A stretch of DNA of 7,622 nt from a virus (IMGVR_UViG_2690316142_000009), one strand, 5' to 3'. Numbered from the stretch's first letter, positions 1,959 through 7,622 are shown. Numbers and translations: made by a program. Notes: a model not told the origin generated them from the sequence alone.

Positions 1959-2315
1959 ATGGAAATAAAACCAGAAGATGAGTTAAGCAATATCGTTTTA
2001 TTTCCGGTAAAAGAGGATGACCCTCGTAATCAGGTTAATTTTCTTTATGAGCCATCGGAAAGACCATATTGCCATCACGCCTCTGTACGGGTTGACGAAA
2101 AAGAGCGTCAGGTCCGCTGTAAAATCTGCGGTGCGGTTGTGGAGCCGTTTGACTGGATGCTCTCTGTGGCAAAAAGAGAAACCAGACTGGCAGATGATGT
2201 AAGGCTATTGCGCCAGGAGGAACAGGAAAGGCGGAGAAATATAGAAAAGCTGATACAGATTGAGCGTAACGCGAAAGCGCGGATACGCAGGGCGACAAAA
2301 TCCAGAACTGAATAA
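1959..2315 (+). CDS. Hypothetical Zn-ribbon-like (C-H-H...C-x2-C) protein with basic, coiled-coil-like C-terminus (118 aa from ATG 1959)
   Basis: The ORF track starts at ATG 1902, which directly follows the upstream stop (TGAATG). The in-frame ATG at 1959 has a much stronger SD (AAGGAGAGGAG ending 4 nt upstream), so 1959 is preferred. Cys/His cluster YCHH...RCKICG, then an Arg/Glu/Lys-rich tail. Confidence 0.55.
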   Translation: MEIKPEDELSNIVLFPVKEDDPRNQVNFLYEPSERPYCHHASVRVDEKERQVRCKICGAVVEPFDWMLSVAKRETRLADDVRLLRQEEQERRRNIEKLIQIERNAKARIRRATKSRTE

Positions 2316-2462
2316 TTAAATTTAGCACTGTTAAAAATTTAATCCTTAACCGGAGGGATTTCTGCACCCTCAAATCATCAGGAGACCACCCGAAAGGGCG
2401 GGGAGCAGTCACACATCTGTTTCCGATAGCCCCGTTCTAATGCTACACTCTTTGATATTTTT

Positions 2463-3149
2463 ATGACCCCAATAAACATATTTATGACAGTTGCTGATTT
2501 CAAACGGCCCAAATTGGAGCTCCCAAACGGGGCAAACAAACTACTACTGCACTCTTGCTGTGCTCCATGTTCCGGTGAGGTGATGGAGGCGCTTCAGGCC
2601 TCGGGAATCGACTACACCATCTTTTTCTACAACCCGAACATTCATCCTCAGAAAGAGTATTTAATTCGTAAGGATGAGAATATTCGCTTTGCTGAACAAC
2701 ACGGCGTGCCGTTTATTGATGCTGATTACGACACAGACAACTGGTTTGAACGAGCCAAAGGAATGGAATGGGAGCCCGAACGAGGGATCCGTTGCACCAT
2801 GTGTTTTGACATGCGTTTTGAGCGGACAGCGCTGTACGCCGCTGAAAATGGTTTCAGTGTGATCAGCAGTTCACTGGGCATTTCACGCTGGAAAAATATG
2901 CAGCAGGTTAACGACTGTGGGCGGCGAGCCGTCGCGCATTATCCGGGCATGGTGTACTGGGATTATAACTGGCGCAAGCAGGGCGGCTCGTCCCGTATGA
3001 TTGAAATCAGCAAGCGCGAAAAATTCTATCAGCAGGAATATTGTGGCTGTGTGTATTCTCTGCGCGATACCAATCTACACCGCAAATCTCAGGGACGCCC
3101 TCTTATCAAAATTGGTCAACTCCACTACGGTAAAGAAGAGAAGGAGTGA
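2463..3149 (+). CDS. queH: QueH-like (DUF208) Fe-S protein, putative epoxyqueuosine reductase
   Basis: 228-aa ORF with Cys motifs [24 protein letters not shown] and YCGCVY, which I recall as characteristic of the DUF208/QueH family. No HMM run. Start uncertain: neither ATG 2463 nor in-frame ATG 2485 has an SD. Confidence 0.55.
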
Positions 3150-3204
3150 TTTTATGGGGCACCTTTCTGATTGATTTCATATTGGCGAGGTAAGTAGAAT
3201 GACT

Positions 3205-3218
3205 GCGGGTGCTTGAGG
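3205..3218 (+). promoter_or_regulatory. hok mRNA 5' fold-back-inhibition (fbi) element
   Basis: GCGGGTGCTTGAGG at 3205-3218 is the reverse complement of CCTCAACGCACCCGC at 3590-3604, apart from a 1-nt bulge. This 5'/3' long-range pairing is the known hallmark of hok-family mRNAs. Confidence 0.5.
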
Positions 3219-3261
3219 CTATCTGCTTCAGGCATGAACACCAAAAGGCAGATAGAGAAAA

Positions 3262-3328
3262 GCCCCAGTTAACATTACGCGTCCGGCAAGACGCTTAACA
3301 TTAATCTGAGGCCAATTTCATGCTTTGC
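3262..3328 (-). ncRNA. sok: Sok-like antisense RNA (approximate extent), antisense to the hok leader
   Basis: Minus-strand sigma70-like promoter: -35 TTGCCT (reverse complement of 3358-3363), 17-bp spacer, -10 TAACCT (reverse complement of 3335-3340). Transcription would start near 3328 and run antisense across the upstream ATG/leader region, as expected for Sok. 3' end not defined; no clean terminator found. Confidence 0.3.
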
Positions 3329-3376
3329 ACATGTAGGTTAGCCTCTTACATGCCGAAAGGCAAGGAGAAGCAGGCT

Positions 3377-3532
3377 ATGAAGCAGCAAAAGGCGATGTTA
3401 ATCGCCCTGATCGTCATCTGTTTAACCGTCATAGTGACGGCACTGGTAACGAGGAAAGACCTCTGTGAGGTACGAATCCGAACCGGCCAGACGGAGGTCG
3501 CTGTCTTCGTAGACTACGAATCCAGGAAGTAA
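3377..3532 (+). CDS. hok: Hok/Gef-family type I toxin (51 aa, membrane peptide)
   Basis: MKQQKAMLIALIVICLTVIVTALVTRKDLCEVRIRTGQTEVAVF... is a near-match to the Hok/Gef family as I recall it, closest to HokD/RelF. AAGGAG SD 10 nt upstream of ATG 3377. The 70-aa ORF-track entry (3320-3532) is the same frame extended to an upstream ATG. Confidence 0.9.
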   Translation: MKQQKAMLIALIVICLTVIVTALVTRKDLCEVRIRTGQTEVAVFVDYESRK

Positions 3533-3589
3533 GAGTGACCGGGCGGGGAGCTGATCCCATCCCCGCCCACCTCTGATGTGTCAGGCATC

Positions 3590-3604
3590 CTCAACGCACC
3601 CGCA
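3590..3604 (+). promoter_or_regulatory. hok mRNA 3' fbi partner element
   Basis: Complementary to 3205-3218 (see that feature). A perfect 9-bp GC-rich hairpin (GGGCGGGGA at 3541-3549 pairing with TCCCCGCCC at 3560-3568) lies just upstream of it in the 3' UTR. Confidence 0.5.
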
Positions 3605-3610
3605 CTTAAC

Positions 3611-3659
3611 CCGCCCATCGCTGTGATCTCTCAGCGTTTCGGCGGGTTTTTTGTTGTTT
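3611..3659 (+). terminator. Intrinsic terminator at the 3' end of the hok transcript
   Basis: Composite helix: CCGCC 3611-3615 pairs with GGCGG 3641-3645, and CGCTG 3619-3623 pairs with CAGCG 3632-3636. Followed by T-rich tract TTTTTTGTTGTTT (3647-3659). Confidence 0.6.
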
Positions 3660-3672
3660 ATTTCCGGTGAAT

Positions 3673-3700
3673 TTGATTCGCGCACCTTCGCAGATAGAAT
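3673..3700 (+). promoter_or_regulatory. Candidate sigma70 promoter for the 95-aa ORF
   Basis: -35 TTGATT (3673-3678), 16-bp spacer, -10 TAGAAT (3695-3700), about 80 nt upstream of ATG 3782. Sequence match only. Confidence 0.35.
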
Positions 3701-3781
3701 CGACTCACTTAAGTAGCGCGCAGGGAGAAGAGGGATGGACCCCGAACAGGGGAGAGCTATTTATCTGGAAGGATTCTGAAG

Positions 3782-4069
3782 ATGAAAATCGAAGAATTGC
3801 GTGAAATTTTTAGTGAAAATGGCCTCTATGCTGTGCGCGTTGAGAATGGAGCGATTGTCAGCCATTGCCGCATTAGATGTTTGCAATCTCAACAAAGGAA
3901 GAGCGGTGCTGTGTTATTTTATTTTTGTAATGGACTTCTGACGGACGGTTTTATTTTGCGTGAGGACGAATTTGTCACATCATTACGGGTTTTGAAAGAG
4001 ATTGGTTTTAAGGCTGGTTTTCTGCTTTTGCTGAAGAATAAACTCATCTACAATCTTGAGCAGGATTGA
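3782..4069 (+). CDS. Hypothetical small protein (95 aa), AT-rich moron-like gene upstream of DUF1367 copy 1
   Basis: ATG 3782 with AAGGA about 8 nt upstream. Visibly more AT-rich than its neighbours. Weak N-terminal similarity to the 70-aa ORF at 5773-5985 (EELREIFSENGLYAVRVENGAIV versus KKLFSSKYAVIRRDDLSVIV). Occupies the same position relative to hok as rem does next to hokD in the Qin prophage; identity not verified. Confidence 0.5.
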   Translation: MKIEELREIFSENGLYAVRVENGAIVSHCRIRCLQSQQRKSGAVLFYFCNGLLTDGFILREDEFVTSLRVLKEIGFKAGFLLLLKNKLIYNLEQD

Positions 4070-4107
4070 ACTCCTGCTGTGTAACACCGTGCCACCGGAG
4101 AAAGCCG

Positions 4108-4424
4108 ATGGCACATATACAACTGGTCAAACAAACCTCTTCCGGATTACTTCTCCCGGCGACGCCGGAGAGTTGCGATTTTCTGCATCAAATCAAAACA
4201 GGTGAGTGGATACACGCAGACTTTAAGCGTGTGCGTAACTACGCATTCCACAAGCGTTTTTTCAAACTCCTGCAACTGGGATTCGATTACTGGACTCCGG
4301 TCGGTGGGGCGATCACGCCTCGCGAACGAAAACTGGTGTCCGGTTTCGTTGATTACCTGTGTGAATCAGTAGGCCGGGAACATACGCCAGCTCTGAGCGA
4401 AGCCGCAGAGCAATTGAGGTGTAC
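4108..4424 (+). pseudogene. DUF1367-like nin-region gene, copy 1, truncated after about codon 105 by the IS
   Basis: 4106-4424 is about 97% identical to 6055-6363 (the intact copy at 6057-6656). Identity ends exactly at the IS end (4425, TGAGGT...). The ORF then runs into IS sequence (LRCTGNSGHYHLFFF) to a stop at 4461. GGAG SD upstream of ATG 4108. Confidence 0.7.
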
Positions 4425-4457
4425 TGGCAATAGCGGACACTACCATTTGTTCTTTTT

Positions 4458-5276
4458 TTAAGCAGCCATCTGATGATATTTTTCCCTGAAGGCTGCCGGG
4501 GAGATATTCCCCAGACGAGAGTGACGACGCTGACGATTGTAGAAAATCTCAATGTATTCCCGTATTACTGAGATGGCTTCATCCCGGTTATTAAAACGAT
4601 AGTGGCTCAGGCTCTCATTTTTCAGCGTTCCCCAGAAGCTTTCCATCGGAGCGTTGTCGTAACAGTTACCTTTACGCGACATTGATGTTTTCAGACCAGA
4701 CTGCTCCTGTATGACCCGGTAATCGTATGCGCAGTACTGTGAACCTCGATCAGAGTGGTGGATTAGCCCGGCAGGTGGGCGCTGGCTCCTGAGCGCCATA
4801 AACAGGGCTTTACCTGTCAGCTCTTTTGTCATGCGCTCTCCCATGGCGTAGCCGACAATTTCGCACGTATAAACATCTTTGATGCCAGCGAGGTACAACC
4901 ATCCCTCCTGTGTGGCAACATACGTCAGGTCCGCCACCCAGACCTGATTTGGTGCTGTAGGAGCGAACGTCTGGTTCAGCAGATTTGGCGCAACTGGCAG
5001 ATTGTGGTTCGAGTTCGTAGTCGCTCTGAACTTGCGTTTCTGCTTACAGCGTAGCCTTAGCTCCTTACGAAGACGTGCCAGTCGGTCACGACCAACGATG
5101 ATGCCATTCTCTGCCAGCTCCGTCTGGAGCCGCCGGGTTCCATATGTTTCGCGAGTGCGGATATGTGCCACCTTAATCTCCAGTTTTAGCCGCTCATCAC
5201 TTTGTTTTCTGTCTGAGGGTTCATGCTGTACCCAGTTGTAATAACCGCTCCTGGATACACCAAATACCTGACACAT
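4458..5276 (-). CDS. IS3-family transposase OrfB (DDE catalytic domain), expected to be made as an OrfAB fusion
   Basis: 272-aa ORF. Its frame stays open upstream through the slippery site, and is -1 relative to orfA (manual translation: ...ILKK then SNSVFCTGVAEKYALIEQWRQQFPIEAMCQVFGV..., no stops). Confidence 0.85.
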   Translation of the reverse strand: MCQVFGVSRSGYYNWVQHEPSDRKQSDERLKLEIKVAHIRTRETYGTRRLQTELAENGIIVGRDRLARLRKELRLRCKQKRKFRATTNSNHNLPVAPNLLNQTFAPTAPNQVWVADLTYVATQEGWLYLAGIKDVYTCEIVGYAMGERMTKELTGKALFMALRSQRPPAGLIHHSDRGSQYCAYDYRVIQEQSGLKTSMSRKGNCYDNAPMESFWGTLKNESLSHYRFNNRDEAISVIREYIEIFYNRQRRHSRLGNISPAAFREKYHQMAA

Positions 5277-5311
5277 CGCTTCAATGGGAAATTGTTGTCG
5301 CCATTGTTCGA

Positions 5312-5614
5312 TTAACGCGTATTTTTCAGCGACTCCTGTGCAAAATACGCTGTTGCTTTTTTTAATATATCTCGCTCAAGGCGAGCTTCATTTAACGCCT
5401 TACGCAGTTGCAGAATTTCAGATTCCAGTTCAGCCACCGTGCGGGAACCAGGAGTACCGAGCCCTTTTCTGGCGGCGGTAACCCATTGTCCTAAAGTGCC
5501 TTCAGGAAGAGATAATCGGGAAGCGCCTTCACTGATCGAAAGTTGATTTTCAAGAACCGTTCTGACAGCTTCGGCTTTGAACTCTTTAGAGTAACGTTGG
5601 GTTTTTCTGCTCAT
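5312..5614 (-). CDS. IS3-family transposase OrfA (HTH DNA-binding / leucine-zipper component)
   Basis: 100-aa ORF starting about 30 nt inside the IS end. Heptad-like LxxxxxxL region (ELESEILQLRKALNEARLERDILKKA). Ends 15 codons after the slippery site. Confidence 0.85.
   Translation of the reverse strand: MSRKTQRYSKEFKAEAVRTVLENQLSISEGASRLSLPEGTLGQWVTAARKGLGTPGSRTVAELESEILQLRKALNEARLERDILKKATAYFAQESLKNTR
5357..5363 (-). other. Programmed -1 ribosomal frameshift slippery heptamer (A_AAA_AAA then G) joining orfA to orfB
   Basis: Minus strand reads TTA AAA AAA GCA in the orfA frame. The -1 frame from this point is open into orfB. Classic IS3-family arrangement. Confidence 0.6.
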
Positions 5615-5772
5615 TATTAGCTCCTTCTGATGCCATTCTATTTCAGGAAGGAGTGTCCGTTAAACTCAGGCTACCTCAAAAACACGATCATACACTAAAT
5701 CAGTAAGTTGGCAGCATCACCTTTTGTCTCTATGTTGATATAACCGTTTGTACTTATAAACCTGGAGGCATC

Positions 5773-6056: not shown

Positions 6057-6656
6057 ATGGCGCATATACAACTGATCAAACAAACCTCTTCCGGATTACT
6101 TCTCCCGGCGACGCCGGAGAGTTGCGATTTTCTGCATCAAATCAAAACAGGTGAGTGGATACACGCAGACTTTAAGCGTGTGCGTAACTACGCATTCCAC
6201 AAGCGTTTTTTCAAACTCCTGCAACTGGGATTCGATTACTGGACTCCGGTCGGTGGGGCGATCACGCCTCGCGAACGAGAACTGCTGTCTGGTTTCGTTG
6301 ATTACCTGTGCGAATCAGTAGGTCGGGAACATACGCCAGCTCTGAGCGAAGCCGCAGAGCAATATCTGAATACAGTTGCGACACGCAGAACCCGGGATAC
6401 GGCATTGCTAAAGTCGTTTGAGGCTTTTCGCGAGTGGGTAACCATTCAGGCTGGATTTTACACCGAACATTTTTATCCGGACGGTAGCCGCGGGCGTCGG
6501 GCAAAATCCATCGCTTTTGCGAATATGGACGAAACCGAGTTTCAGCAGGTTTATAAATCTGTTCTGAATGTGCTGTGGAACTGGATTCTGTTCCGTAAAT
6601 TTTCCTCTCCGGAACAAGTCGAAAATGTGGCCGCGCAGCTGCTGGAGTTTGCGTAA
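6057..6656 (+). CDS. DUF1367-like nin-region protein (199 aa), intact copy
   Basis: GGAGA SD 7 nt upstream of the ATG. Stop overlaps the next start (TAATG). N-terminal 105 codons duplicated at 4108-4424. Family label from memory of nin-region proteins (YbcN-like), not verified. Confidence 0.7.
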   Translation: MAHIQLIKQTSSGLLLPATPESCDFLHQIKTGEWIHADFKRVRNYAFHKRFFKLLQLGFDYWTPVGGAITPRERELLSGFVDYLCESVGREHTPALSEAAEQYLNTVATRRTRDTALLKSFEAFREWVTIQAGFYTEHFYPDGSRGRRAKSIAFANMDETEFQQVYKSVLNVLWNWILFRKFSSPEQVENVAAQLLEFA

Positions 6657-7497: not shown

Positions 7498-7574
7498 CGT
7501 AAAAACTGCTTCAATTCTTGTACGCTTCGCAAAGCTGTACCGCGAGGCGAATAGCAGACATGGACATTTGAAAG

Positions 7575-7599
7575 AGCCCGCTTTATGCGGGTTTTTTTA
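7575..7599 (+). terminator. Rho-independent terminator (candidate tR' of the late-operon leader)
   Basis: Stem AGCCCGC (7575-7581), loop TTTAT, stem GCGGGTT (7587-7593), then a T7 run (7592-7598). About 80 nt downstream of the Q-like stop. Confidence 0.65.
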
Positions 7600-7622
7600 T
7601 ACCTGAAAAACGGCACAGGACG

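Follow-up and report, generated by a model that had tools for sequence, protein, structure and literature searches.

The window, by which we mean the whole 7,622-nt stretch of DNA that was analysed, contains all the sequence elements of a hok/mok/sok locus between positions 3171 and 3654 (Table 1). The neighbouring genes are ydaV-like, DUF977 and queH upstream and a rem-like ORF followed by DUF1367 downstream, and genes for DUF1364 and DUF1133 proteins are also present. An IS600 element of 1264 bp occupies 4415-5678 and is 100% identical to annotated IS600 copies. It interrupts the DUF1367 gene 760 bp past the hok T-tract and is thus located outside the hok transcript, in agreement with an earlier note on this DNA that had placed the nearest IS about 800 bp downstream and beyond the transcript. 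IS600 is followed by a multi-copy repeat fragment and then by a second nin-type module. The same hok region occurs without the IS in FDAARGOS_944, and the IS600 junction of S. flexneri is situated 62 bp further along than that of the window. Positions 2177-4414 show 99.6% identity to Shigella flexneri SFBU1023 and to ECMA0423, a Shigella-sized "E. coli". Judging from IS600 and the 99.6% identity to S. flexneri, the lineage of the window is of Shigella type, not laboratory E. coli.

Table 1. Predicted elements of the hok/mok/sok locus, numbered from the first nucleotide of the window.
Feature	Position	Strand	Description
Putative hok/mok promoter	3171-3200	+	TTGATT, 18-nt spacer, TAGAAT; promoter scan, 9/12 matches
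tac element	3207-3218	+	Predicted 5' end of hok mRNA; complementarity in the DNA reaches 3205; GGGYGCUU invariant or covarying in 34 homologues
Metastable-hairpin partner of tac	3225-3235	+	3209-3219 with 3225-3235; MFE of 3'-truncated RNA
sok antisense RNA gene	3258-3328	-	71 nt; coordinates mapped from annotated sokW of 933W
ucb (anti-SD box) AAGCCCC	3260-3266	+	Closed form: covers mok SD; open form: paired with tac; mapped via R1 numbering (PMC9841398)
mok Shine-Dalgarno GAGG	3308-3311	+	8 nt before mok ATG; invariant in 34 homologues
mok leader ORF	3320-3532	+	70 aa, in frame with hok (N-terminally extended Hok); layout as in annotated mokW
Sok target loop CUUUGCA	3323-3329	+	Tops the mok SD/dcb stem; MFE of 3207-3350; complements Sok nt 1-6
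sok promoter	3335-3363	-	TTGCCT (3363-3358), 17-nt spacer, TAACCT (3340-3335); hexamers are those of 933W sokW
dcb-type box GCCUCUUAC	3341-3349	+	Open form: paired with mok SD; closed form: paired with 3529-3535 (hok stop region)
hok Shine-Dalgarno GGAG	3364-3367	+	9 nt before ATG; read from the sequence
hok toxin ORF	3377-3532	+	51 aa + stop, MKQQKAMLIALIVICLTVIVTALVTRKDLCEVRIRTGQTEVAVFVDYESRK; Pfam HOK_GEF; identical protein is HokD WP_014532198.1
GC-rich stem-loop	3541-3568	+	9 bp, 3541-3549/3560-3568; expected 3' end and exonuclease block of processed mRNA
fbi (fold-back inhibition) element	3589-3603	+	Pairs with tac in the MFE fold
Composite intrinsic terminator	3608-3654	+	Outer stem 3608-3615/3641-3648 (8 bp), inner 5-bp stem, T6 3649-3654

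The earlier note had described a complete Hok ORF with a good Shine-Dalgarno (SD) sequence, and both were recovered. The encoded 51-aa protein matches Pfam PF01848 (HOK_GEF) over profile positions 1-42 of 42 with a score of 81.1 bits (cut-off 22), and it differs from HokW by a single residue, R50 in the window and E50 in HokW. With the NCBIfam Hok models, the protein scored under the curated cut-offs (NF007279, a Hok subfamily, 55.0 versus 73 bits; NF007290, HokA, 38.9 versus 89 bits). These two models represent other Hok subfamilies, and PGAP still names the identical protein HokD. Tyr47 lies within a TadA editing motif (PMC12214031), so full Hok toxicity may depend on RNA editing. The SD sequence of the mok leader ORF corresponds to GAGG 105-108 of R1 (PMC9841398).

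Upstream of the leader, the -10 hexamer of the putative hok promoter (TAGAAT, 3195-3200) is kept in hokW of phage 933W, while the -35 region is not the same. Based on the -10 box and the start of the Rfam model, the 5' end of the hok RNA is probably G3207. In the MFE fold of 3205-3652, the 5' end pairs with the 3' untranslated region through 8 bp (3205-3212 with 3596-3603) and 6 bp (3213-3218 with 3589-3594), leaving C3595 bulged. The earlier note had proposed a 14-bp pairing of 3205-3218 with 3590-3604, interrupted by a 1-nt bulge. The pairing and the bulge are retained in our fold; the 3' arm is instead 3589-3603, and the helix in the RNA probably comprises 12 bp rather than 14, because transcription probably starts at G3207 and the outermost pairs at 3205 and 3206 would then be outside the RNA. 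These two pairs are also poorly conserved, the equivalent positions being unpaired in 21 of 34 homologues.

Folding the region, which the earlier note had named as the way to check the fbi helix, supported the pairing. As RNA, 3205-3652 folds with -195.4 kcal/mol (z = -8.3 against shuffled sequences), and the tac/fbi pairs are part of this MFE structure. Each of them has an ensemble probability of 0.97-1.00, irrespective of whether the RNA begins at 3205 or 3207 and whether the terminator is included. We compared every 24-nt stretch on both strands of the window as a partner of the 5' element. The fbi element was the top plus-strand partner (-27.7 kcal/mol, the next reaching -21.6), and across both strands only the trivial antisense of the 5' element itself scored better. 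When the 3' UTR was shuffled, none of 2000 shuffles reached the energy of the real tac/fbi pairing.

The pairing was further examined among homologues. A scan of one genome per species yielded 47 loci from Escherichia, Shigella, Kluyvera, Citrobacter, Photorhabdus, Pantoea, Erwinia and others, and 34 distinct, 5'-complete loci, spanning Escherichia, Kluyvera, Citrobacter, Photorhabdus, Pantoea and Erwinia, were aligned so that pairs could be counted for the window's fold. Over the whole structure, 82.0% of cells are paired, versus 38-43% when the partners are slid by 1-3 columns, and 159 cells are changed on both sides, versus 75 ± 8 in shuffles. The pair equivalent to U3210-A3598 occurs as UA in 20 homologues, CG in 11 and UG in 2, and is unpaired in 1. 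In the alignment (A2), Photorhabdus is off by one column in the outer part (half) of fbi, such that counts at columns 11-16 understate the pairing, and duplex folding was therefore performed per sequence. The tac of each locus forms a duplex with its own fbi in 34 of 34 homologues, with energies of -18.5 to -31.2 kcal/mol (window, -27.9). Cognate combinations of tac and fbi averaged -23.2 kcal/mol versus -22.3 for non-cognate ones, a comparison of low power since tac is so conserved. The conserved pairing repeats the family knowledge summarised in PMC9841398. Complements of 12-14 nt can in general arise at random, but the idea that the two ends match by chance and that the region contains nothing more than a Hok-like ORF, lacking an RNA switch, retains practically no probability here, being already refuted by covariation, duplex folding and shuffles, with fbi as the best plus-strand partner in the window, a pairing kept in 34 homologues through compensatory and wobble changes, and a score of 117 bits for the Rfam structural model.

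That model, RF01794 ("sok"), covers 3207-3382 with all of its 157 positions (1-157; gathering score 59, E = 6.6e-27). It has the orientation of hok and extends up to the hok AUG, and therefore supports a structured hok leader rather than transcription of an antisense Sok RNA. According to PMC9841398, a metastable 5' hairpin arises during hok transcription, full-length hok RNA is closed by tac/fbi while ucb sequesters the mok SD, and after 3' trimming tac pairs with ucb and the mok SD with dcb, whereby translation and Sok binding become possible. Both states were found in the predicted folds of the window. In the closed full-length fold, the ucb region contacts the mok SD region (3262-3264 with 3310-3312, 3266-3268 with 3306-3308), and CUCUUAC at 3343-3349 forms a helix with GUAAGAG at 3529-3535 that is close to invariant across the 34 homologues. 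The MFE structure of the 5' domain alone (3207-3350) is the open form. In this structure, tac (3207-3214) is bound to ucb (3260-3266), the mok SD at 3308-3312 forms a stem with dcb at 3341-3345, and the Sok-complement hairpin is present as well. As the bases of the tac/ucb helix do not vary among the 34 homologues, they give no covariation signal.

When the RNA was cut after the GC hairpin, the MFE structure contained the local 5' hairpin (3209-3219 with 3225-3235) and not tac/ucb, and the open form of the whole truncated RNA was 2.7 kcal/mol above the MFE. This does not count against the locus, since the control from an R1-like IncF plasmid behaves likewise (3.3 kcal/mol). As modelled, the window sequence supports the closed and open states as well as the paradigm does. 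A different assignment of ucb, AGCCUCUUAC at 3340-3349, was also considered and rejected: forcing it to pair with tac gave a structure 7.4 kcal/mol worse than the MFE, and PMC9841398 assigns ucb to the anti-SD box that precedes the mok SD and corresponds to 3260-3266.

The 3' region contains the two structures that had been described before, a 9-bp GC hairpin in the 3' UTR and an intrinsic terminator. The hairpin appears in the fold with a loop of 10 nt, and all homologues have one at the same position, that of hokW being different in sequence. In R1, the role of the GC stem-loop in stabilising the processed mRNA has been described (PMC9841398). The terminator is composite. Relatives have a simple one, AACCCGC-TTCG-GCGGGTT-T6, whereas the loop of the window's terminator contains 23 extra nt that include the internal 5-bp stem. 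A simple terminator scan of the window missed it for the sole reason that the loop exceeds 8 nt.

On the minus strand, the earlier note had pointed to a promoter-like site for Sok and to an antisense gene near 3262-3328. Mapping from sokW gives a slightly longer candidate gene of 71 nt, and its putative promoter has the hexamers of sokW and one substitution in the spacer. Judging from the sequence of primer YO-421, the mutation in the "pro-less" construct of PMC8621323 probably affects the sok -10. A consensus promoter scan of the window did not call the sok promoter. We rejected this miss as evidence that a sok promoter is lacking, as the hexamers equal those of sokW. In the predicted Sok RNA, an unpaired 5' tail of 15 nt precedes a long hairpin, which is followed by a UUUU tail (-31.9 kcal/mol, z = -5.8). 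Going by homology and sequence, Sok would thus be encoded in cis by a gene that overlaps the translation start of mok and has a promoter and a terminator of its own.

Sok and SokW differ at 7 positions, all of them within the first 16 nt, and the other 55 nt are identical. Comparison of the window locus, 933W and two co-resident S. flexneri loci showed that 10 of 17 columns in the Sok tail/target are variable, versus 1 of 54 in the body. The three hok loci of one S. flexneri genome have three different target-loop sequences; two of them are intact over the aligned region, and the copy of the window's own allele, a near-duplicate, was not included in that alignment. We tentatively suggest that co-resident prophage hok/sok loci may face diversifying selection for orthogonality, in which each Sok guards only its own Hok and the prophages are guarded independently, although the odds are against it. 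The variation of the Sok tail and target loop is compatible with such selection and equally with relaxed constraint.

The module is widespread and already known. Homologues were found in 4713 of 5426 complete E. coli genomes (median 2 per genome), and 3889 of the 5426 possess a copy covering at least 80% of 3195-3660. Loci that are 90-95% identical occur in 3195-4443 other E. coli records, the number being set by the query used. E. coli FDAARGOS_943 and 944 carry loci with 100% identity, annotated hokD by PGAP. Such identical RefSeq loci already bear the hokD annotation, and the toxin-antitoxin family is among the best studied. Compared with annotated hokD/hokW loci, the window locus reaches an identity of 90% or more throughout leader, CDS and fbi, and it has a prophage setting, which assigns it to the hokD/hokW subfamily.

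Direct support for the locus comes from its sequence elements, from the closed and the open fold, from conservation with covariation among homologues and from its near-identity to a system that has been validated; its transcription, processing, toxicity and physiological role are what we infer. The structural reading as an intact hok/sok is supported by the family models, homology to a validated locus, folding and covariation. The proposal that had started this analysis, an intact hok/sok locus with its end pairing preserved, therefore agrees with the Pfam and Rfam models, the homology to hokW-sokW, the fold and the covariation. Taken together, 3171-3654 very probably constitutes an intact type I toxin-antitoxin module, hok/mok/sok, that belongs to the hokD/hokW subfamily, is located in the nin-like region of a Rac-type prophage and is expected to work like the R1 and hokW paradigms. 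The points that speak against this explanation are the hok -35 region unlike that of hokW, the 23-nt insertion in the terminator loop, the scans that missed the sok promoter and the terminator, the NCBIfam scores under the cut-off, the possible dependence of toxicity on editing at Tyr47, and the earlier finding that intact chromosomal hokA, hokB and hokC gave no post-segregational killing.

In this mode of operation, the weak promoter would start transcription at G3207 and yield a stable mRNA about 446 nt long. Its 5' tac would pair with the 3' fbi, and ucb would mask the mok SD. Owing to this pairing and the masking by ucb, the full-length hok RNA would be neither translated nor bound by Sok. 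Slow trimming of the 3' end back to the GC hairpin (about 3569) would remove fbi. The freed tac would then pair with ucb, and the mok SD would enter a hairpin whose loop, CUUUGCA, is offered to Sok. As long as the unstable 71-nt Sok is made, it would pair with the target region, and RNase III would cleave the duplex. Once the supply of Sok ends, mok would be translated, hok would be translated by coupling, and Hok would depolarise the inner membrane.

The closest characterised relative provides a view of the possible role. hokW-sokW encodes a toxin and an RNA antitoxin whose action depends partly on RNase III and Hfq (PMC8621323). Upon treatment with mitomycin C, SokW disappears and HokW is made, and deletion of hokW-sokW delays growth arrest and halves phage release (PMC8621323). 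Hok toxicity, neutralisation by Sok via RNase III-dependent decay, and the combination of an unstable Sok with a stable hok mRNA have been shown for hokW-sokW (PMC8621323) and R1 (PMC9841398). By analogy, the most likely role of the window locus is to help kill or lyse the cell when the prophage is induced, and it may also cause addiction to the prophage. That it is functional and stabilises or defends the prophage region, as the earlier note had raised, is a guess. A literature search on the expression of Shigella hok/sok found nothing specific.

As an alternative to prophage maintenance or help with lysis, we considered abortive-infection defence against incoming phages as the main role, with host transcription shut-off stopping Sok synthesis and freeing Hok. 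A phage-defence role of Hok has been reported, hok is enriched about four-fold in prophages (bioRxiv 10.1101/2025.08.07.668861), and the mechanism would require only elements present in the window. On the other hand, hok is not enriched beside defence systems (bioRxiv 10.1101/2025.08.07.668861), and hokW-sokW, the sole tested prophage relative, altered lysis timing and phage yield in a study that measured no defence (PMC8621323). Nothing in the window content bears on a defence role, and we consider it improbable that this is the main one.

A locus that is intact in sequence may also be physiologically silent, a passenger in a decaying, IS-ridden prophage that causes no killing upon loss of Sok or arrest of transcription. 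The intact chromosomal hokA, hokB and hokC showed no post-segregational killing (bioRxiv 10.1101/2025.08.07.668861), the prophage here is scarred by IS600 and the multi-copy repeat fragment, and other hok copies in the same Shigella-type genomes have decayed, one with a mutated tac (L007) and another with a frameshifted hok (L042). A relic, however, should gather lesions like those of L007, L042 or the K-12 hokD, whereas in the window the regulatory elements are all conserved and the locus is 92% identical to the toxic, Sok-regulated hokW-sokW. We regard silence as rather unlikely.

As a discovery, the locus has little weight, since most E. coli genomes carry the module and experiments have already been done on its nearest relative. 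In practice, the locus is useful as a clean and complete representative of the form that gave rise to the truncated K-12 hokD. As one of several co-resident variants, it could be used to test whether the Sok 5' tails confer orthogonality on such modules, and these variants could also be used to ask whether prophages employ hok for lysis timing, addiction or defence.

We compared the locus with known hok systems. The loci of plasmid R1 and R1-like IncF plasmids have the same order of elements, namely tac, ucb, mok SD, Sok target, dcb, hok, GC hairpin, fbi and terminator. R1-like loci also give the same closed and open folds in silico and belong to the same Pfam and Rfam families. Their nucleotide alignment with the window is limited to about 47 nt around the sok promoter/dcb region. 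Further differences concern mok, which in the R1 type is out of frame and ends inside hok and in the window is in frame, and the Sok hairpin, which is longer in the window, where Sok has 71 nt and the hairpin exceeds the Rfam consensus by about 16-18 nt. The R1 system is plasmid-borne, whereas the window locus is located in a chromosomal prophage.

Among chromosomal loci, hokC (gef)/mokC/sokC and the others sampled have an identical tac, keep the fbi pairing and encode toxins about 78-80% identical to that of the window. They differ in the Sok target region, in a shorter Sok-complement hairpin and in the chromosomal site. In the hokC of K-12-type genomes (L016), the fbi region is replaced. The MokC ORF is also in frame with hokC. 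The protein of K-12 hokD (relF, Qin prophage) is 90% identical to the window's Hok, and the nucleotide match, 3363-3614, includes fbi. K-12-type genomes match this interval only, so K-12 hokD is devoid of the promoter, tac, ucb, mok start and sok. Nothing upstream of the hok SD is kept there, and the window copy represents the complete form. This fits the earlier remark that hok loci of laboratory E. coli are often inactivated: in K-12, hok loci other than hokB are reported to be inactivated by insertion elements or rearrangements, hokD through rearrangement and hokC through an insertion element (PMC12214031).

The highest likeness is to hokW-mokW-sokW of 933W and Sp5/VT2-Sakai, with 92.0% nucleotide identity over 3187-3611, from the -10 box to fbi. 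In both loci, mok encodes 70 aa in frame with hok, and Sok is 71 nt long with the same hairpin and tail and the same promoter hexamers. The differences comprise the Sok 5' end (7 of the first 16 nt) and the target loop, the GC hairpin, which in the window has another sequence and a larger loop, and the terminator, which in the window is its own, as the similarity to 933W stops just past fbi. The surroundings also differ: hokW is near the end of the 933W record among other genes, and the window copy lies between queH and the rem-like ORF. The differences from its nearest relatives remove no defining element of hok/mok/sok.

Sequence variation in the hok/mok/sok module is concentrated where the 5' tail of Sok, the target loop and the start of mok coincide. 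An alignment of the locus with hokW of Stx2 phage 933W and a further pair of S. flexneri loci shows this segment to vary at 10 of 17 columns, and the adjacent Sok body at a single column of 54. All 7 differences between Sok and SokW, the antisense RNA of 933W, fall within the first 16 nt. Rfam RF01794, the family called 'sok', aligns to 3207-3382 on the hok-sense strand, and its consensus stops at the hok AUG; this model therefore represents the hok mRNA leader, not the antisense RNA.

The heptamer surrounding the hok Tyr47 codon includes the TadA editing motif UACG, and TACGAA at this site is unchanged in all 34 homologues aligned with the locus. Editing of the mRNA from Tyr to Cys has been published for hokC, hokD and hokE at the position equivalent to Tyr47 (PMC12214031). 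Given the motif and these precedents, the toxicity of Hok encoded here may depend on editing.

Features of the window and their coordinates
Feature	Position	Remark
queH, epoxyqueuosine reductase QueH gene	2463-3149	Pfam 220 bits
Variation hot spot	3311-3328	Sok 5' tail / target loop / mok start
hok Tyr47 codon	3515-3517	inside CUACGAA, 3514-3520
Terminator loop insertion	3616-3640	~23 extra nt in window allele
Second promoter-like site, TTGATT-16-TAGAAT	3673-3700	hexamers equal those of the hok promoter
IS600, complete, 1264 bp	4415-5678	100% identity with annotated Shigella sonnei copies
43-nt multi-copy fragment	5679-5721	directly after IS600
GC hairpin and U-run	7513-7600	after Q-like gene

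The queH gene lies immediately upstream of hok, and the surroundings consist of prophage replication and nin-type genes. Just past the hok terminator, the second promoter-like site precedes a 95-aa ORF (3782-4069), which matches a phage Rac region annotated rem/irsA.

Further downstream, IS600 breaks a DUF1367 gene (4066-4414), of which a second, complete copy is present at 6057-6656. The IS600 junction of S. flexneri SFBU1023 sits 62 bp deeper in the DUF1367 gene, and E. coli FDAARGOS_944, unlike the window, lacks the IS in the corresponding hok region. Taken together, the interrupted gene, its second copy and these differences point to an IS-mediated rearrangement through which two nin-type modules were joined. 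The 43-nt fragment adjoining IS600 is repeated in E. coli at a median of 9 places per genome. Its sequence corresponds to the inverted repeat at the ends of IS1 (GGTGATGCTGCCAACTTACTGAT...), and it looks like a truncated IS1 end. The hairpin following the Q-like gene gave weak Rfam matches below threshold (isrK, 19.9 bits; Trp_leader, 23.1 bits), and it may be a lambdoid-type late-promoter-proximal terminator or small RNA.

The hok terminator of relatives is a simple AACCCGC-TTCG-GCGGGTT hairpin, whereas the loop of the window allele carries an insertion with a 5-bp inverted repeat of its own (CGCTG...CAGCG), and only S. flexneri-type loci and the pair of E. coli genomes with 100% identity have this insertion too. 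The window copy of hok is intact, in contrast to decayed copies in related genomes: of two loci in E. coli ECMA0423, one has a mutated tac region (L007) and the other a frameshifted hok (L042), and in the K-12-type hokC of K-12-like ECDA1023 (L016) the fbi region is replaced.
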